From Candidatus Levyibacteriota bacterium (GTDB lineage: Bacteria > Patescibacteriota > Microgenomatia > Levybacterales > UBA12049): 64,000 bases of DNA. The DNA is taken from contig CP066685.1 of NCBI GenBank assembly GCA_016432345.1, positions 176,236 through 240,235 on the forward strand. Reading direction: 5' to 3'. The notes beneath the pieces were generated by a model that was not told where the DNA came from, searched no databases, and worked only from the letters and a program-made list of their open reading frames with translations. Both the position numbers and the translations under genes were made by a program. This document shows positions 1 through 61,200 of the stretch, in pieces; within the stretch, counting starts at the first letter, position 1, and each line of letters begins with the position of its first letter.

Positions 1-633
1 AAGCACAGCATTTCTGCTTCTCCCGCAACAATTCGCAACGAAATGGTAAAACTTACCGAGCTTGGATATCTTAAAAAACCTCATACATCAGCAGGTCGCA
101 TGCCCACATCACAAGGTATGAAGTTTTACGTTAAACAACTCATGAAGGAAAAAGACCTTTCGGTGGCGGAAGAGGTGGCGGTAAAAGAAAAATTGTGGGA
201 TTACCGTGGGAAAGAAGACAAGTTTTTTAGAGAGCTTACCAAATCCCTTGCTAAACAAACCAAATCTCTTGCCGTTGCCACAACAGAGGAAGGGGATTTT
301 TACTGCGCTGGATATGCCAATATCTTAGATATGCCAGAGTTTTATGATATTGATGTTACTAAAAGTTTGCTTTTGGCAATTGATGAATGTGATTACTTTC
401 ATACTTTATTTGCCAAGTTTATAGACGATCAAGACGTGCATGTTTTAGTTGGGGACGAGCTTGGCCCACAGTTGCATGGTCAATACGGATTTGTATTTAC
501 TCATTTTGAAACGCCAAAACACAGAGCAGGGGAAGTTGGGGTACTTGGTCCATCACGGCTTAATTACACAAGGATTGTGCCAACGGTTAGATATTTTGGA
601 GATTTAGTTGAAGAAATTGCAACAGGATGGTAG
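1..633 (+). CDS. hrcA: Heat-inducible transcription repressor HrcA (5' end cut by window edge)
   Basis: The frame is open from nt 1 (KHSISASPATIRNEMVKLTELGYL...), which matches the HrcA SSATIRNEM region. It sits directly upstream of grpE-dnaK-dnaJ. Confidence 0.9.
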   Translation, partial: KHSISASPATIRNEMVKLTELGYLKKPHTSAGRMPTSQGMKFYVKQLMKEKDLSVAEEVAVKEKLWDYRGKEDKFFRELTKSLAKQTKSLAVATTEEGDFYCAGYANILDMPEFYDIDVTKSLLLAIDECDYFHTLFAKFIDDQDVHVLVGDELGPQLHGQYGFVFTHFETPKHRAGEVGVLGPSRLNYTRIVPTVRYFGDLVEEIATGW

Positions 634-672
634 AATTTAGAGTCTAGATAATAGCGTCTAGCGTATAGTTAA
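631..672 (+). repeat. Six phased heptads TAGAATT TAGAGTC TAGATAA TAGCGTC TAGCGTA TAGTTAA, starting at the hrcA stop codon
   Basis: Read directly from the sequence. TAG occurs at 631, 638, 645, 652, 659 and 666, an exact 7-nt period. Confidence 0.9.
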
Positions 673-676
673 AACA

Positions 677-1186
677 ATGACGAAAAATGACAAAAATAAT
701 CAAAAAGAAGTAGAAAAAGTAGATTCTGATGTAAAACAGAAAGCAGAGAAAGAAGAAAAAGAAGATAGTGAAACAGAAAAGTTAAAGCAGAAAGTCGAAG
801 GTCTTGAAAATCAGATAAAAAGAGTATTGGCAGATTATCAGAATCTGGAAAAAAGAGTCAGGGAAGATAGGGTAAGTTGGATCAGAACCGCGAATAAAGA
901 TTTACTCTTGCGATTTTTACCGGTTTTGGATACACTCATATTAGCCAGTAAACATTCAGAAGACAAAAGCTTGGAAGTTACGACTCAGCAATTTTTACAA
1001 GCACTCAAAGACGAAGGAGTAGAAAAAATAGAAACAGAAGGAAAAGCATTTGACCCAAATACAATGGAAGCAATTGGAACTCAAGAGGGAAAAGAAGGGG
1101 AAGTAATCGAAGAAACACGAATGGGATATATGATAAGAGATAGAGTTTTAAGAGTTGCACAGGTGATTGTTGGAGAAGGAAAATAA
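677..1186 (+). CDS. grpE: Nucleotide exchange factor GrpE
   Basis: It has a K/E-rich N-terminus followed by GrpE core motifs (LADYQNLEKR, LLPVLD, FDPNTMEA). It lies between hrcA and dnaK. Confidence 0.93.
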   Translation: MTKNDKNNQKEVEKVDSDVKQKAEKEEKEDSETEKLKQKVEGLENQIKRVLADYQNLEKRVREDRVSWIRTANKDLLLRFLPVLDTLILASKHSEDKSLEVTTQQFLQALKDEGVEKIETEGKAFDPNTMEAIGTQEGKEGEVIEETRMGYMIRDRVLRVAQVIVGEGK

Positions 1187-1189
1187 TAT

Positions 1190-1399
1190 ATGTTTGAATA
1201 TAAAATTGTTCTTATTGATGCAAGCACTTCAGATACATTTTTGGAGAAGGTACAAAATGAGTTAAATAAGTATGGTGCTGAAGGATGGGAATTAGTAACA
1301 ATAGAGTCTTTTAGCAATGCACAATCAGCACTGTTTTATGGTGGGGGCAAGACGTCTGGTTTTGTGGCTATTTTAAAAAGAAAAAAGGAGAGTAAATAA
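1190..1399 (+). CDS. Small DUF4177-like protein (69 aa)
   Basis: The sequence MFEYKIV...[15 protein letters not shown] resembles the DUF4177 pattern (recalled from memory, not searched). The gene starts 3 nt after the grpE stop and ends 1 nt before the dnaK start. Confidence 0.6.
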
Positions 1400-1400
1400 T

Positions 1401-3305
1401 ATGGGAAAAATAATTGGTATTGATTTGGGAACAACAAATAGTTGCGTTGCTGTAATGGAGGGTGGATCACCAAAAGTTATTCACTCTGCAGAAGGCAGAA
1501 ACGTTATTCCATCGGTGGTTGATCCAATCAGTCACGTTGTAGGCGATGTGGCCAAACGACAGTTGGTTTTAAAACCAAAACGGACAATATTTTCTGTCAA
1601 AAGACTGATGGGGCGAAAATTCAACGATGAGTCAGTGCAACGAGACATAAAATGGCTTCCCTATACTGTAAAATCCGGCCGCGACGGCATGACTGTGGTT
1701 GAAGTTGAAGGAAAAACCCTAACGCCTCAAGAAGTTTCGGCCATGATCTTACAAAAAATTAAAGCAGACGCAGAATCTTACTTGGGTGGTAAAGTTATCC
1801 AAGCGGTTATTACAGTGCCGGCGTATTTTGATGACAGTCAGCGTCAGGCCACCAAACAAGCAGGAGAAATTGCCGGACTTGAAGTTCTTAGAATTATCAA
1901 CGAACCAACAGCAGCAGCTCTTGCTTATGGCTTGGATAAAAAGAATGCCCATACTATTGCAGTGTATGATTTGGGCGGTGGTACCTTTGATATTTCTATT
2001 TTGGAACTTGGTGAAGGAGTTTATGAAGTAAAGTCAACCAACGGTGATACGCATTTGGGCGGAGATGATTTTGACCAGAAAATTGTTGATTATTTGGCCG
2101 ATGAATTCAAAAAAGAAAATGGCATTGATCTTAAAAAAGATCCGCAGGCATTGCAGCGACTTCGGGAAGCAGCAGAAAAAGCCAAAATTGAGCTTTCTAG
2201 TAGCACCGAGGCGCAGATTAATCAGCCATTTATCACTCAAGGAAAAGAAGGACCTTTACATTTAACCACCACCTTGACCCGGGCAAAACTCGAACAAATT
2301 GTTGATGAGTTGATTCAAAAAACCATTAAACCAGTTGAATTGGCGTTAAAAGACGCAAAGATTAAAGCATCTGATATTGATGAAGTGGTTTTGGTTGGAG
2401 GAATGACCCGTATGCCTAAGGTTATCGAAGCAGTTACTAAATTTTTTGGTAAAGAGCCGAATAAATCAGTTAATCCAGATGAGGTGGTAGCAGTTGGCGC
2501 AGCAATTCAGGGAGGCGTTTTAGGTGGAGAAGTCAAAGATGTTTTACTTTTAGATGTAACACCATTAACGCTTGGACTTGAAACATTAGGCAGTGTTTCA
2601 ACGCCTTTAATTTCCCGAAACACCACAATTCCAACCAGTAAATCACAAGTTTTTTCAACAGCGGCAGATAATCAAACTCAGGTAGAAATTAATGTGTTGC
2701 AGGGCGAGCGGCCAATGGCTTCGGATAACAAATCATTGGGTAGGTTTATTTTGGATGGTATACCTCCAGCTCCCCGTGGTGTTCCGCAAGTTGAAGTAAC
2801 TTTTGATATTGACGCCAGCGGTATTTTAAGTGTTAAAGCCAAAGACAAGGCAACAGGCAAAGAGCAGAGTATTAAAATTACCGGTTCAACAGGGCTTTCG
2901 AAAGACGAAGTTGAAAAAATGACTAAAGAAGCAGAAATGCACGCTAAAGAAGACGAAGAGAAAAAAGCCAAAGTCGAAACACGAAATCAGGCAGATTCGC
3001 TTATTTTTACGGCCGAAAAATCTCTTAAAGACGCAGGAGATAAAGTGAAGGAAGATCTTAAAAAAGAAGTAGAAGAAAAAATATCAGAACTTAAAAAAAT
3101 TCTAGACACAGGCAGCAAGGAGGAAATCGAGAAAAAAGCCAGCGAATTGTCGGATAGTTTGCAAAAAGTGGGACAGGCGATGTCATCTCAGAAAACGGAA
3201 GACGGAGGACAGAAGACGGAAGCCACCTCCACTGAAAGCTCTAATGAGCCAAAGGAAGAAAAAAAAGATAAAGACGAACCTGTTGAGGGAGAAGTGGTAA
3301 ACTAG
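1401..3305 (+). CDS. dnaK: Molecular chaperone DnaK (Hsp70)
   Basis: Contains [17 protein letters not shown] and [12 protein letters not shown] motifs. A GGAG Shine-Dalgarno lies upstream. Confidence 0.99.
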
Positions 3306-3337
3306 CGTATAGTAAATAGCGTATAGCGTTTAGTTTG
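3303..3337 (+). repeat. Five phased heptads TAGCGTA TAGTAAA TAGCGTA TAGCGTT TAGTTTG, starting at the dnaK stop codon
   Basis: TAG occurs at 3303, 3310, 3317, 3324 and 3331, read directly from the sequence. Confidence 0.9.
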
Positions 3338-3339
3338 GG

Positions 3340-3358
3340 AGCGCAGGGGCGCTTTTTT
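3340..3358 (+). terminator. Short GC hairpin plus T-run after dnaK
   Basis: AGCGC-AGGG-GCGCT forms a 5-bp stem and is followed by TTTTTT. Confidence 0.45.
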
Positions 3359-3360
3359 AG

Positions 3361-3366
3361 TATAAT
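3361..3366 (+). promoter_or_regulatory. TATAAT box 6 nt upstream of the dnaJ ATG (possible leaderless start)
   Basis: TATAAT-ACGATT-ATG. There is no Shine-Dalgarno and no clear -35 element. Confidence 0.35.
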
Positions 3367-3372
3367 ACGATT

Positions 3373-4269
3373 ATGGCAAAAGATTTTTACGAAGCATTGG
3401 GAGTATCCAAAAGCGCGAGCGATGACGAGATAAAGCGTGCGTACCGAAAATTGGCACTGCAGTATCATCCTGATCGAAATAAAGGCAAGGAATCAGAGGA
3501 AAAATTTAAAGAAGTAACCAAAGCCTACGAAGTGTTATCCGACACCCAAAAACGTCAACAGTACGACCAGTTTGGTCATGCGGCATTTGAACAAGGCGCA
3601 GGCGGCCCGGGGCCTTTTGGCGGGACTGGCGGACCGTTTGGCGGAGCACAATCAGGGCAGTATGGACCTTTTAGTTATACATACACAACCGGCGGTGCTA
3701 ATGATTTTGATTTCGGCGGATTTTCTGATCCATTCGAAATTTTTGAACAATTTTTTGGTGGCGCTTCACCTTTTAGCCAACAACGACAGCGGCGTTCGGT
3801 CTACTCACTATCAATTGATTTTATGGAGGCAGTGCATGGAACAGACAAAAAAGTAACCATTGATGGTAAATCGCAAACCATTAAAATTCCAGCAGGTGTT
3901 GATAATGGCACAAGAATTCGTTTTGAAAAGTACGATGTGGTTGTTGAAGTAAGTCCAGATAAACAGTTTCAGCGGGAAGGCACGAATGTTGTTTCCGAAC
4001 AAGAAATTTCGTTTCCTCAAGCAGCTATTGGCGACAATATTGATGTTGAAACAGTTGATGGGACGGTTTCACTTCGTATTCCTTCCGGAACCCAGCCAGA
4101 TGCAGTTATTCGGCTTCGTGGCAAAGGTATTTCGCATGTCCGCGGCGGTGGTAAAGGCGATCATTATGTACGAATCAAAATCGTCGTACCCAAAAACCTC
4201 ACCAGCCGCCAAAAAGACCTCCTCGAAGAATTTGAGGAAGAGGGAAAAAAGAAAAAAGGTTGGTTTTAA
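3373..4269 (+). CDS. dnaJ: J-domain co-chaperone, class II (CbpA/DnaJ-like, no zinc finger)
   Basis: It has a J domain with HPD (YHPDRN), a G/F-rich linker and the C-terminal substrate-binding domains. The protein contains no cysteine at all, so the CxxCxGxG zinc-finger module is absent. Confidence 0.9.
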
Positions 4270-34235: not shown

Positions 34236-34706
34236 ATGCCTACTTTATCACAACTTTCTAAAAGAGGGAGAAAAAGAAAAATTAAGAAAACTCGTTCAAC
34301 AGCATTGCGACGCTTATACAATGCAAAAGAGCGTTTATATACGAATGATCTTTCGCCTCAAAAACGAGGGGTTGTAACATTGGTTAAAACTATGACGCCA
34401 AAAAAGCCAAACTCAGCCCTTAGAAAAGTGGCCAGGGTTAAGCTTTCCAACAGAATAGAAGTAACAGCATATATTCAAGGAGTTGGTCATGCACTTTCTG
34501 AACACGGCATTGTGCTTGTTCGCGGAGGACGGGTTAAAGATTTACCAGGAGTAAAATACCATATTGTTCGTGGAAAGTTTGATTTATTGGGAGTTGATGG
34601 CCGTAAGTCTTCACGAAGTAAGTATGGTACGAAGAAAGGTTTAGGCGGTGGACCGGCAGCTGCGCCGAAAGCGCAAGCATCGGCACCCGCGGCAACCAGC
34701 GTTTAG
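34236..34706 (+). CDS. rpsL: 30S ribosomal protein S12 (with an internal ~13-aa insertion and an Ala/Pro-rich C-terminal tail)
   Basis: It begins MPTLSQL and contains [15 protein letters not shown] and [14 protein letters not shown]. The track's start at 34131 runs inside rpoC and is rejected. Confidence 0.95.
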
Positions 34707-34730
34707 TTAATAGCGTCAGCGTATAGTTAA
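34704..34730 (+). repeat. Heptad block TAGTTAA TAGCGTC (-)AGCGTA TAGTTAA starting at the rpsL stop codon
   Basis: It uses the same words as the 652-672 array, with one T missing. Read directly from the sequence. Confidence 0.85.
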
Positions 34731-34740
34731 AAATAAAAAC

Positions 34741-34775
34741 TAAGCGCTAATATCTAGACGCTAAACGCTAAAATT
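34741..34775 (+). repeat. Five phased heptads TAAGCGC TAATATC TAGACGC TAAACGC TAAAATT ending at the rpsG ATG
   Basis: TAA or TAG occurs at 34741, 34748, 34755, 34762 and 34769, and the ATG at 34776 continues the same 7-nt phase. The block is an inverted version of the TAGCGT words. Confidence 0.85.
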
Positions 34776-35249
34776 ATGAGACATAAAAAAGTTGTAAAAA
34801 GAGAAACAAATACAGATCCAGTTTATAATAGTAAGTTAGTAGCGAAATTTATTAATAATATTATGATCGCTGGTAAAAAGACCGCTGCCCAGAAGACTTT
34901 TTATAATGCGTTGGTTATTCTTGAAAGCAAGGGTCAAGTGCCTTTGGAGGCTTTTGAAAAAGCAATTCAAACTGTGGGGCCAAGAGTAGAAGTGAAAGCC
35001 AGACGAGTAGGCGGAGCAAATTATCAAGTGCCGGCAGAAGTTAGGGGAGAGCGAAAAACTTCTTTAGCAATTCGTTGGATAATAGATGCTGCAAAAGCAA
35101 GGCCAAGCGCGCAGTTTCATACATTCGCCGAAAAGCTTGCAGCAGAGTTGTTAGACGTGCTGCAAAATCAAGGAGCAGCAATCAAAAAGCGAGATACAGT
35201 CCTTCGCATGGCCGAAGCCAACAAAGCCTTCGCCCATTTCCGTTGGTAA
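34776..35249 (+). CDS. rpsG: 30S ribosomal protein S7
   Basis: Typical S7 sequence (DPVYNS.LV.KFIN..M..GKK..A). Confidence 0.97.
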   Translation: MRHKKVVKRETNTDPVYNSKLVAKFINNIMIAGKKTAAQKTFYNALVILESKGQVPLEAFEKAIQTVGPRVEVKARRVGGANYQVPAEVRGERKTSLAIRWIIDAAKARPSAQFHTFAEKLAAELLDVLQNQGAAIKKRDTVLRMAEANKAFAHFRW

Positions 35250-52222: not shown

Positions 52223-52740
52223 GTCAGACTCAAAACGAATTACAGCAAAAACTAAATATAAAAAATGTGATGGCAGTGCCAAAGATTTCTAAAATTGTTG
52301 TCAACATGGGCGTAAAAGACGTAGTACAGGATAAAAAAAATATCGAAAGAGCAGCGGTAATTCTATCGCAAATTACTGGGCAAAAGCCCAAAATCACATC
52401 GGCCAAAAAATCTATTGCAACTTTTAAGCTAAGAGAAGGAGATCAAATAGGGGTTATGGTAACATTGCGAGGAAAACGAATGCATGATTTTTTTACAAAA
52501 CTTACTAGTATTGTTTTACCCCGACTTAGAGATTTTCGAGGTGTTTCAAAAAAGCAATTTGATGGGCATGGCAATTATACATTGGGGTTTTCCGAGCACA
52601 CGGTATTTCCAGAAATTGATCCTGGAAAGGTAGAAAAGGTTTTTGGTTTTGAAGTTGTTATTGTGACAACAGCCAGAGACAATAAAGAAGGACTTGCATT
52701 GCTTGAAATGCTTGGCATGCCCTTTATGAAAAGCGTCTAG
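52219..52740 (+). CDS. rplE: 50S ribosomal protein L5
   Basis: Contains typical L5 blocks (ITGQKP, FKLREG, RDFRG). Confidence 0.97.
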
Positions 52741-52765
52741 TTTTTTCAACTGAACGCTAAAAATT

Positions 52766-58281: not shown

Positions 58282-58310
58282 TTGCTCTTTATAGGCTGGT
58301 TTGTTATAAT
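58282..58310 (+). promoter_or_regulatory. Sigma70-like promoter TTGCTC-17-TATAAT for infA
   Basis: The -10 is a perfect consensus with a 17-nt spacer. The leader to the ATG at 58390 is about 75 nt. Confidence 0.5.
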
Positions 58311-58389
58311 AGTTAGACAAGCGTCTAGTTCAAGGACTGCCACATGGCAAACTAACCGCTAGTCGGTTAGTAACTAAACGCTTATATTT

Positions 58390-60213: not shown

Positions 60214-61137
60214 ATGGATCCGGTATTTAAAGTAAAAGAAGAAAAACATACAGATGAGTACGGCGAGTTTGTTATCGAACCGCTAGAGCCAGGATATGGT
60301 CATACGGTTGGAAATGCGTTGCGCCGAGTGCTTTTAACATCTATTCCAGGAGCTGCAATAACCTCTGTTAAAATTTCTGGTGTGAAACATAGATTTTCTA
60401 CACTTTCTGGACTTAAAGAAAACATTGTTGATTTGCTTCTTAATCTTAAAGGTGTAAGTTTCCATTTTTCCGACGCAAAAACCAGCGCCACGATTAGAAT
60501 CTCTGAAAAAGGCCCCAAAACCATTACGGCAAGAGATATTGTTGTCAGTGATGGCGTTGAAATTGTTAATAAAGATCATTATTTGGGTTCGTTAGCAGAT
60601 AAAAAAGCAAAACTAGATATGGAAATGACTGTTGAAAAAGGACAAGGATACATGGTTGTAGAAGATCGAAAAGTATCTGAAGTAGGAGTTATTACCACAG
60701 ATGCCATATTTACTCCTGTAAGAAGAGTTAGCTATAATGTATCTGCAACACGTGTTGGCAGACAAACAAATCTTGATAAACTGACCATATCCATTTGGAC
60801 AAACGGCACAATTACTCCCCGCGAGGCTCTTCGCCAAGCCGCTAAAGTTTTAGGGTCGTTTTTTATGCAAGTATACGAACCAAAATCCGCATCGCTTCCA
60901 TCAGATGGCATAGCAATAAGTCCAAGCATTTCTGAAGATTTGCTTAAGCTTACCATTGATGAACTCGATTTACCAACCCGTATTTACAATAGTTTACGAA
61001 ATGGTAGCATAGAAACACTTGGGCAACTTTTGGGAACATCAAAAAGAGACCTTATGACTATGAGAAATATGGGAAACAAATCTATTAGTATTATCGAGGA
61101 TAAATTGCGAGAAAAAGGAATATCATTGGGAGTGTAA
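60214..61137 (+). CDS. rpoA: DNA-directed RNA polymerase subunit alpha
   Basis: Contains GYGHTVGNALRRVLL and a C-terminal helix-hairpin-helix domain (LDLPTRIYNSL). The ATG at 60214 is preferred over the TTG at 60202. Confidence 0.96.
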   Translation: MDPVFKVKEEKHTDEYGEFVIEPLEPGYGHTVGNALRRVLLTSIPGAAITSVKISGVKHRFSTLSGLKENIVDLLLNLKGVSFHFSDAKTSATIRISEKGPKTITARDIVVSDGVEIVNKDHYLGSLADKKAKLDMEMTVEKGQGYMVVEDRKVSEVGVITTDAIFTPVRRVSYNVSATRVGRQTNLDKLTISIWTNGTITPREALRQAAKVLGSFFMQVYEPKSASLPSDGIAISPSISEDLLKLTIDELDLPTRIYNSLRNGSIETLGQLLGTSKRDLMTMRNMGNKSISIIEDKLREKGISLGV

Positions 61138-61140
61138 GAC

Positions 61141-61200
61141 ACGAATAGACACGAATGTTTTTTGAGCGGAAATTGAGTATTCGTGTTTATTCGTTTTTTT
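61141..61200 (+). terminator. 16-bp hairpin plus T6 run between rpoA and rplQ, ending at the rplQ ATG
   Basis: ACGAATAGACACGAAT (61141-61156) pairs with ATTCGTGTTTATTCGT (61179-61194) with one G-U pair. The loop is 22 nt and TTTTTT occupies 61195-61200. Confidence 0.6.

Follow-up and report, generated by a model that had tools for sequence, protein, structure and literature searches.

A heptad-repeat spacer, a predicted terminator and a putative leaderless promoter at the dnaK-dnaJ boundary of a Levyibacteriota genome

REP/BIME and Correia elements are short intergenic palindromes that are co-transcribed in operons and can serve as mRNA stabilisers, RNase III sites or partial terminators. The heptamers known as short tandemly repeated repetitive (STRR) sequences in cyanobacteria were reportedly described by Mazel and colleagues in 1990, and Homuth and colleagues are said to have reported in 1997 and 1999 that, in the Bacillus subtilis dnaK operon, dnaK is followed by a terminator-like stem-loop and dnaJ is preceded by an internal promoter. 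Another heptamer, TAACTGA, occurs in marine Beggiatoaceae and in some Cyanobacteria and Bacteroidetes, and a role in translational regulation has been proposed for it (MacGregor 2015, PMC4679880). The HutP site in the hut terminator of B. subtilis contains XAG triplets 4 nt apart (U498, U505 and U512) on the 5′ side of a GC-rich stem (PMC2425495), and leaderless genes of bacteria have a published computational signature, a TANNNT box that starts ~12 nt ahead of the start codon (PMC3160421). Here, we analyse the boundary between dnaK and dnaJ in a 64,000-nt stretch of a Candidatus Levyibacteriota genome (GenBank assembly GCA_016432345.1, contig CP066685.1, positions 176,236 to 240,235; hereafter the window), where the dnaK stop codon opens an array of TAG-led heptads that is followed by a predicted terminator and by a -10 box close to the dnaJ start.

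The explanation that we favour, and to which we give about an even chance of being right, is that this interval is a compact operon boundary of three separate parts: a heptad spacer seeded on a stop codon, a terminator and a leaderless -10 box (Table 1). A preliminary description of the window had reported the heptads, the hairpin, the TATAAT and a dnaJ ATG without a Shine-Dalgarno (SD) sequence, and all four are present in the sequence where it placed them. The TAGs of the array start at 3303, 3310, 3317, 3324 and 3331 and hit all three reading frames. From the stop codon, 34 nt lead to the terminator stem; the array takes up this gap, with two G's separating it from the hairpin. A further TAG (3358-3360) directly precedes TATAAT, and the -10 box abuts the T-run of the terminator. 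The first T of the box lies at -12 relative to the dnaJ ATG (3373), with 6 nt between box and ATG, and the DnaJ N-terminus read from this ATG is the canonical DnaJ start. This anatomy, its statistical significance and its recurrence in relatives are direct observations.

We propose that slippage during replication, with the dnaK stop codon and the adjoining downstream bases as its seed, gave rise to a TAGCGTN-family array. The array would have been kept as a weakly structured spacer of ~34 nt whose exact sequence matters little and which would have no connection with HrcA. Such a spacer would hold the terminating ribosome off the terminator hairpin and, because 7 mod 3 = 1, would offer a stop codon in every frame. 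The intrinsic terminator would end the CIRCE/HrcA-controlled hrcA-grpE-dnaK transcript, and the -10 box, which has no -35 element, would start transcription at or beside the A of the dnaJ ATG. The outcome would be a leaderless dnaJ mRNA that escapes CIRCE control and is expressed independently of dnaK. From sequence features and their recurrence we infer that transcription ends and starts at these points, that dnaJ is translated without a leader and that the array acts as a spacer.

The hairpin folds with -9.4 kcal/mol (z = -3.0; 2 of 200 shuffles were equally good) and consists of a GC-rich stem-loop followed by T6 on the 3′ side of the stop codon, as expected of an intrinsic terminator. For comparison, we took as relatives the 80 best genomic matches to the window DnaJ (52-72% identity), nearly all of them metagenome-assembled genomes labelled Candidatus Levybacteria, Levyibacteriota, Microgenomates or Patescibacteria; the order hrcA-grpE-dnaK-dnaJ is kept in 59 of these 80 loci, and spacer counts cover the 70 loci at which dnaK and dnaJ are both present. 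In 47 of these 70 spacers there is a perfect GC-containing hairpin with a T-run behind it. The terminator stem begins 22-36 nt past the dnaK stop in 29 of 42 relatives, with a median of 32.5 nt, and this stop-to-stem distance is kept whether the filler is TAG heptads, TAA heptads, other heptads or non-repeat sequence. A spacer role for the array is suggested because the length of the gap is conserved while the repeat unit turns over freely.

A simple consensus scan of the window for terminators and promoters listed neither the hairpin nor TATAAT: the former because G-T pairing probably extends the stem into the T-run, the latter because no TTGACA-like -35 is present upstream of 3361-3366. Searched against Rfam at the gathering threshold, the whole window yielded one tRNA and nothing else, and regions 500-3500 and 34600-34850 gave no match at E <= 1. 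We rejected the idea that the array forms a riboswitch-like antiterminator. The minimum free energy fold of 3290-3385 does pair array units with both terminator halves, but its z is only -1.4. Nor did we see any signal of an RNA switch: next to the natural array, the terminator stem forms with a probability of 0.92, which lies at the 38th percentile of 500 shuffled spacers.

The -10 box likewise recurs. Of the 70 related loci, 35 have a -10 hexamer, matched at 5 or 6 of its 6 positions, whose last base lies 4-10 nt ahead of the dnaJ ATG; in 19 it is an exact TATAAT, typically within TTTTTAGTATAAT, against ~0.5 exact boxes that we estimate from base composition. An SD-like motif precedes dnaJ in only 11 of the 70. 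In the closest relative (DnaJ 83% identical), ATTCAAA repeated 4.7 times follows dnaK, and then come the same terminator, TAGTATAAT, 6 nt and the ATG. In the window itself, no GGAG, GAGG or AGGA lies within 18 nt upstream of the dnaJ ATG, but since only 11 of 67 window genes have a strong SD (one of these three motifs), this absence is not remarkable alone; lack of an SD is typical of the genome, and the position of the -10 box is the informative feature. Twelve of the 67 genes carry a -10 box at -15 to -10, with a peak at -12, and none of the twelve has an SD. Both an SD and a leaderless-type -10 box are lacking in another 44, many of which have overlapping or abutting stop and start codons. 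In its sequence, dnaJ looks like a leaderless gene: a box at -12, an ATG start, no SD and a signal conserved at orthologues.

CIRCE (TTAGCACTC-N9-GAGTGCTAA) is absent from the entire window at up to 3 mismatches, which bears out the preliminary description, where none had been seen in the spacers. Upstream of hrcA, a position that lies outside the window in this genome, a CIRCE-like element occurs in 30 of the 43 relatives with enough upstream sequence, and the two nearest relatives have the repeat TTGGCACTC-N9-TAGTGCTAA there. The proposal, made in the same description, that dnaJ is uncoupled from dnaK and possibly leaderless is therefore supported by comparison: terminator and box recur in relatives in the numbers given above, SD-like motifs are few, and the box sits at the published leaderless position. 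That DnaJ is made from a leaderless mRNA of its own, which lacks CIRCE and is separate from the transcript under HrcA control, is a well-supported prediction, and the comparative evidence is strong that terminator and leaderless promoter would form the functional core of the interval. This combination is ordinary for the Levybacteria lineage and already known in kind. Two more distant Microgenomates carry a CIRCE-like inverted repeat ~75 nt upstream of dnaJ (L062:3924-3950 and L079:3926-3952), and in the first of them dnaJ is 870 nt away from dnaK. In these two genomes, dnaJ would be HrcA-controlled at its own promoter.

Table 1. Coordinates of the dnaK-dnaJ boundary and of related heptad arrays in the window.
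Feature	Position	Strand	Description
dnaK, 634 aa	1401-3305	+	From the list of open reading frames (ORFs); Pfam HSP70, E = 6.6e-258; stop codon TAG 3303-3305 is unit 1 of the heptad array
TAG-phased heptad array, 5 units	3303-3337	+	From sequence and Tandem Repeats Finder (period 7); units TAGCGTA 3303-3309, TAGTAAA 3310-3316, TAGCGTA 3317-3323, TAGCGTT 3324-3330, TAGTTTG 3331-3337
Intrinsic terminator (predicted), 3′ end of hrcA-grpE-DUF4177-dnaK transcript	3337-3358	+	Core stem AGCGC 3340-3344 / GCGCT 3349-3353, loop AGGG, T-run to 3358
TAGTATAAT	3358-3366	+	Contains sigma-70-type -10 box TATAAT 3361-3366
dnaJ, 298 aa	3373-4269	+	Pfam J domain and DnaJ_C; zinc-finger domain absent
Sister array, 6 TAGs	631-668	+	First TAG is the hrcA stop codon; 8 nt separate the array from the grpE ATG (677)
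rpsL-rpsG spacer	34698-34770	.	Forward units AGCGTTTAG/TAGCGTC/AGCGTATAG, rpsL stop codon included; reverse units CTAAGCG CTAATAT CTAGACG CTAAACG CTA; fold -25.0 kcal/mol, z = -3.5, 0/200 shuffles as good; hairpin ends 5 nt before the rpsG ATG
rplE-rpsN spacer	52732-52759	+	AGCGTCTAG (holds the rplE stop) is paired with CTGAACGCT, and the latter stops 7 nt short of the rpsN ATG; fold -9.3 kcal/mol
infA leader (map-infA)	58319-58383	+	Structured element closed by AAGCGTCTAGTT and AACTAAACGCTT, stopping 6 nt short of the infA ATG, downstream of the TGTTATAAT promoter (58302-58310); fold -24.2 kcal/mol, z = -3.0

The array itself is more than chance. The pattern TAG-N4-TAG-N4-TAG matches 10 times in the window where 0.31 matches were expected and the largest value in shuffled sequence was 3, and TAG at other spacings gave 0-1 matches each. 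The 10 matches fall in three arrays: 631-668 (+), 3303-3333 (+) and 34740-34770 (-). Tandem Repeats Finder independently called 3303-3333 with period 7, 4.4 copies and the consensus TAGCGTA, so that the array, with at least three head-to-tail 7-nt copies in non-coding DNA, qualifies as a simple repeat. By itself it is weakly structured (-3.9 kcal/mol). Within the window arrays, TAG is constant and the remaining four positions vary; in array 631-668 the N4 series runs AATT, AGTC, ATAA, CGTC, CGTA, TTAA, and TAG alone is conserved between units. At the end of that array, TATAGT (664-669) lies 13 nt ahead of the SD-less grpE ATG, and from its sequence grpE, too, may be leaderless. An extended -10 promoter-like site (TTGAAG-17-TGgTAGAAT, 608-636) overlaps the hrcA stop codon.

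Two sequencing projects together supplied 6 independent short assemblies with a DnaJ 100% identical to that of the window; identical contigs come from samples SRR12113419-33 and SRR4343430. Five of these assemblies span the whole spacer and carry the same array, and the sixth contig starts just past it. A hypervariable contingency locus was rejected on the strength of the five identical arrays. Heptads as stacked -10 boxes (TAnnnT) were also rejected: TAGCGT and TAGAAT fit, but the TAGAAGN, TAGCAAC and TAGACAA units of relatives do not, and neither do the reverse arrays.

Period 7 dominates far beyond the window. Across 727 kb of sequence from Levybacteria/Microgenomates, 126 tandem arrays reach 3 copies or more; 74 of them have a period of 7, and period 9 comes next with 15 arrays. 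Fifty-three of the 74 were intergenic, though only ~8% of the DNA is, and the period-6 and period-9 arrays all lay in coding sequence. Typically, an array reaches from the stop codon of a gene as far as a terminator or the next start codon, and solo arrays run in the sense orientation of the upstream gene at a ratio of ~2:1. Among all 64 triplets, TAG is the most specific to 7-nt spacing (60 matches, against 12 or fewer at any other spacing); TAA and several A/T-rich triplets come behind it. Units found after dnaK in relatives are TAGTAAT-type, TAAGTTA, TTAAAAG, AAATCCG or ATTTAAG, or there is no repeat, and many relatives have no array at all in the dnaK-dnaJ spacer. TAGCGTN units also occur at other spacers in other Levybacteria. 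A comparison of related spacers had been put forward as a check on the preliminary description, and its outcome is divided: terminator and -10 box are conserved between orthologous spacers, the heptad unit is not.

An origin by slippage is suggested because period-7 arrays are dominant and intergenic, abut stop or start codons and reuse TAG stops as units, because solo arrays show the sense bias just given, and because close strains of Candidatus Omnitrophota, considered below, differ by exactly one unit. It is possible to go further and to regard the array as a neutral simple-sequence repeat that comes from slippage-prone replication or repair and only occupies space; its position on the stop codon would then reflect flanking coding sequence that is intolerant of 7-nt expansions. 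The dominance of period 7 over all other tandem repeats, with many unrelated units, fits such a view, as do the fast turnover of units at orthologous spacers and the many relatives that are free of arrays. A survey of prokaryotic genomes is also reported to have found that, in most of those rich in repeats, heptanucleotides are the most frequent long simple repeats (Mrazek 2007 via PMC4679880). Yet small genomes of the Candidate Phyla Radiation (CPR) keep few useless bases, and in many genomes arrays nevertheless occupy the same two operon junctions. TAG is selectively conserved, the distance from stop to terminator is narrowly distributed, and the identical array of five assemblies shows no length polymorphism. 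We consider a purely neutral repeat unlikely.

A period-7 repeat of another kind, GAAGACG in 4.6 copies, lies at 3191-3222 within the sequence coding for the C-terminal tail of DnaK; comparable heptad repeats are present at the dnaK 3′ ends of L013, L207 and L209, and a period not divisible by 3 is unusual within a gene. The operon in the window runs hrcA (5′ part outside the window edge), grpE, a 69-aa DUF4177 ORF, dnaK and dnaJ. The DUF4177 ORF (1190-1399) sits between grpE and dnaK, and in the nearest relatives, L207 and L209, grpE abuts dnaK with no such ORF between them. Compared with solved structures, neither the DUF4177 product nor that of orf129, the small ORFs near the operon, gave an informative match.

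The TAGCGTN unit recurs in five spacers of the window. Its core AGCGTNTAG occurs 12 times, 10 times in intergenic sequence, which makes up 5.3% of the window, and twice on the last codons of genes. Reverse units (CTANACGCT) pair with forward AGCGTNTAG into hairpins in the rpsL-rpsG, rplE-rpsN and map-infA spacers. Each hairpin has its start at the TAG stop of the preceding gene or directly behind a promoter, and its end 5-7 nt before the SD-less start of rpsG, rpsN or infA. All 4 of the 4 window junctions at which a forward unit abuts the upstream gene use the TAG stop of that gene, and TAG ends only 16 of 69 genes. The preliminary description had stressed that two of the three arrays lie in the heat-shock operon. 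Their positions (631-668 and 3303-3333) stand, but a special link between array and HrcA regulon does not: the same motif is found at the three ribosomal and initiation-factor junctions, and varied heptads fill spacers throughout the lineage. Specificity of the heptad array for heat shock is thus not supported by the sequence comparison. After rpoA (61137-61198), two direct 10-mers (AGACACGAAT), two inverted 10-mers (TATTCGTGTT) and a T-run resemble a terminator-like hairpin made from tandem units, the same building principle with a period of 10.

These hairpins raise the question whether the array at 3303 is half of, or a decayed relative of, a palindromic intercistronic element (REP-, MITE- or Correia-like) built from forward TAGCGTN and reverse NACGCTA units. 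As RNA, the complete element would fold into a long, imperfect hairpin and either undergo processing, by RNase III for instance, or stabilise the cistron upstream of it, and it would set different expression levels within operons; at this dnaK-dnaJ junction, the reverse half would have been replaced by terminator and promoter. Two inverted arms are indeed present at 34698-34770, 52732-52759 and 58319-58383, and the two larger hairpins are stable (-25 and -24 kcal/mol, z ~ -3). At 3303-3337 there are no such arms: no CTA-phased inverted partner was found near it, nor anywhere else in the heat-shock operon of the window.

Arrays of this one unit were also sought in metagenomes with the pattern TAG-N4-TAGCGTN-TAGCGTN-TAG, which matched in at least 120 contigs of GC 0.31-0.60; some matches are eukaryotic telomere-like TTTAGGG arrays. 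Of the 127 arrays among the matches listed, 49 lie within 100 nt of an inverted, CTA-phased partner, and when the downstream side was searched more strictly there were at least 43 forward-reverse pairs. In at least 29 of the arrays listed, a long upstream ORF ends on a TAG among the first three, with a preference for the first (first, second or third in 16, 8 and 5 cases). Among the matches listed are three contigs (L089:330-560, L101:10600-10810 and L210:4882-4951) in which the dnaK stop is the first TAG of TAGCGTN repeated 4-5 times, and this forward array is followed by a reverse CTA-phased array and then by the dnaJ ATG. Their DnaK is of the Candidatus Omnitrophota type and ~52% identical to the window DnaK. 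L101 and L210 (DnaK 96% identical) differ by one forward unit, whereas no copy-number change was seen among the five population assemblies that cover the array. TAG/CTA heptad hairpins also occur at rplE-rpsN (L181:2120-2290) and map-infA (L185, minus strand, ~330-560), the same junctions as in the window.

The paired arrays of Omnitrophota dnaK and the hairpins shared with L181 and L185, both distant contigs, favour a palindromic element. Against it, other Omnitrophota with DnaK 78-85% identical have no array, and the junction therefore does not require one. The units of reverse arrays are often in direct, not mirrored, order, and the stems are therefore imperfect. The genes that flank the listed metagenome arrays are diverse housekeeping genes: in 83 ORFs downstream of listed arrays, 97 different Pfam families were found, none in more than 2 ORFs, with no transposase or other family enriched. 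Four-helix-bundle/23S_rRNA_IVP-type ORFs begin a few nt past arrays in three cases (L095:779-830; L161, minus strand, ~1092-1200; L207:20855-20891), but with no Pfam family in more than 2 of the 83 ORFs, a specific gene family beside the arrays was rejected. The palindromic reading describes the paired arrays of the window well; for the array at 3303, which lacks a partner, we consider it quite unlikely.

In a bolder variant of this explanation, forward arrays of heat-shock mRNAs would pair in trans with the reverse boxes upstream of SD-less ribosomal-protein starts. The stretch UAGCGUUUAG (3324-3333) is perfectly complementary to CUAAACGCUA (34761-34770), but complementarity over 10 nt is expected by construction within one repeat family. 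More broadly, TAG heptads (TAGCGTN/NACGCTA) could be a cis-regulatory code common to at least two phyla of ultra-small bacteria, Levybacteria and Omnitrophota, that marks the dnaK-dnaJ, hrcA-grpE, rpsL-rpsG, rplE-rpsN and map-infA junctions. Its reader would be a conserved nucleic-acid-binding factor whose footprint is 7 nt, or else forward and reverse RNA would pair, in cis as processing hairpins or in trans between chaperone mRNA and SD-less ribosomal-protein leaders. If true, such a code would set relative expression in operons where SD sequences are rare. We see only a slim chance that it exists.

An oligomeric RNA-binding protein would be another kind of reader. The array would then be a platform on the nascent 3′ untranslated region of dnaK for a protein of the HutP or TRAP type that reads triplets at a fixed spacing, or for cold-shock proteins, of which each covers ~7 nt; bound next to the hairpin, such a protein would tune termination after dnaK, and at the hrcA-grpE array it would tune translation of grpE. 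The array matches the HutP site-I rule exactly, with at least three XAG triplets at a 7-nt period, single-stranded, 5′ of a GC-rich stem. The invariant TAG amid variable N4, the rank of TAG as the most period-7-specific triplet of the lineage, and the arrays that end 4-8 nt before SD-less start codons in several relatives point the same way. However, there is no second XAG-rich site past the stem: a lone TAG at 3358 lies 24 nt after the array, and none lies at +7 or +14 from it. Arrays occur in both orientations across the lineage, and unrelated heptads (ATTCAAA, TAAGTTA, AAATCCG) occupy the same spot in relatives. Among the small neighbouring genes, DUF4177 and orf129 included, we found no candidate for the protein. 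HutP is not known outside Firmicutes, which also counts against a protein of this kind. A TRAP site consists of 9-11 (G/U)AG triplets 2-3 nt apart. Here, there are five triplets separated by 4 nt, and TAG at a spacing of 2-3 nt has 0 matches in the window; a TRAP-like spacing was therefore rejected. Cold-shock and S1 proteins were proposed as readers of TAACTGA heptamers (PMC4679880), and cold-shock or S1-type readers may act here. On balance, we think a dedicated RNA-binding protein very unlikely.

Several observations weigh against the slippage-derived spacer that we favour. TAG is invariant and N4 poorly conserved, almost random in array 631-668, which would not be expected from slippage with uniform decay. 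The presence of TAGCGTN in five window spacers, in other Levybacteria and at Omnitrophota dnaK points to a trans-acting reader or a mobile origin. About one-third of the solo arrays are antisense to the upstream gene, so that a role in stopping ribosomes in all frames is not general; three units would suffice for such stops, and no particular period is needed. In silico, the natural array helps the terminator to fold no more than shuffled spacers do (38th percentile), and with identical arrays in 5 of 6 assemblies, no variation in copy number is seen in the population.

The TAG-phased heptads are real, widespread and unexplained, and the locus itself is an ordinary operon boundary for its lineage. 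For annotators and physiologists, it is useful that, judged by its sequence, dnaJ in Levybacteria probably has constitutive expression that does not depend on the hrcA-grpE-dnaK transcript under CIRCE/HrcA control. In this CPR lineage, leaderless initiation and translation with few SD sequences appear routine. If a factor reads the heptads, they would be a new and easily recognised regulatory signal in bacteria that have not yet been grown; if they are products of slippage only, they would mark an unusual replication or repair regime and be a nuisance to gene callers and assemblers.

The exact repeat strings are absent from the searchable literature, and we found no description there of a TAG-phased family of spacer repeats. 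The family is kin to known heptanucleotide repeats and differs from them in its unit, in the conservation of TAG only, in inverted pairing and in its hosts. The paired arrays at rpsL-rpsG, rplE-rpsN and map-infA resemble REP/BIME and Correia elements but have arms of 7-nt tandem units and no transposase was seen with them, and the array at 3303 differs from such elements in having no inverted partner. The B. subtilis dnaK operon has the same order of hrcA, grpE, dnaK and dnaJ, CIRCE at the first promoter and a separately transcribed dnaJ, as is predicted here. The logic of terminator and internal promoter is not new, because that operon has been described in the same way, whereas a predicted leaderless dnaJ and a spacer made of a heptad array set the Levyibacteriota locus apart.

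Among heptamers, TAACTGA (PMC4679880) offers a close parallel. It, too, forms short tandem arrays (2-6 copies) of a 7-nt unit that holds stop codons, intergenic and mostly forward, a few nt upstream of starts without a canonical ribosome-binding site, in ribosomal-protein operons and patchily distributed across phyla. TAACTGA is fixed, whereas the unit in the window is TAG plus four variable bases, most often CGTN, with the triplet alone invariant; with units TAGCGTA, TAGTAAA, TAGCGTT and TAGTTTG, the array at 3303 lies outside MacGregor's family. The kin of the window arrays are often paired in inverted orientation into hairpins, where a single indirect repeat was found among 170 sets of TAACTGA (PMC4679880). 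The hosts are Levybacteria and Omnitrophota in place of Beggiatoaceae, Cyanobacteria and Bacteroidetes, and the array at 3303 lies in a 3′ untranslated region before a terminator and not before a start codon. Long simple sequence repeats (LSSR) and STRR arrays are usually near-perfect copies of one unit; here the units have diverged save for TAG and the arrays are anchored on stop codons. With the LSSR (Mrazek 2007) and STRR sequences, the array shares tandem 7-nt units, a bias towards intergenic DNA and slippage as the proposed origin, and in both cases 7 is the leading period among longer simple repeats (PMC4679880, PMC4692102).

Like HutP site I, the array presents five UAGs with a 7-nt period that end 6 nt before a terminator stem between two genes. 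Unlike the HutP site, it lacks the second XAG-rich site 12-17 nt downstream, and the arrays of relatives also run antisense and have other cores. Finally, the dnaJ start resembles the TA-led leaderless genes of Zheng et al. 2011 (PMC3160421) and of group C in GeneMarkS-2 (PMC6028130), with TANNNT ~12 nt upstream, no SD and an ATG. Compared with leaderless genes generally, what is particular to this dnaJ, as known from its sequence, is the Levybacteria host and a box fused to the T-run of the preceding terminator.

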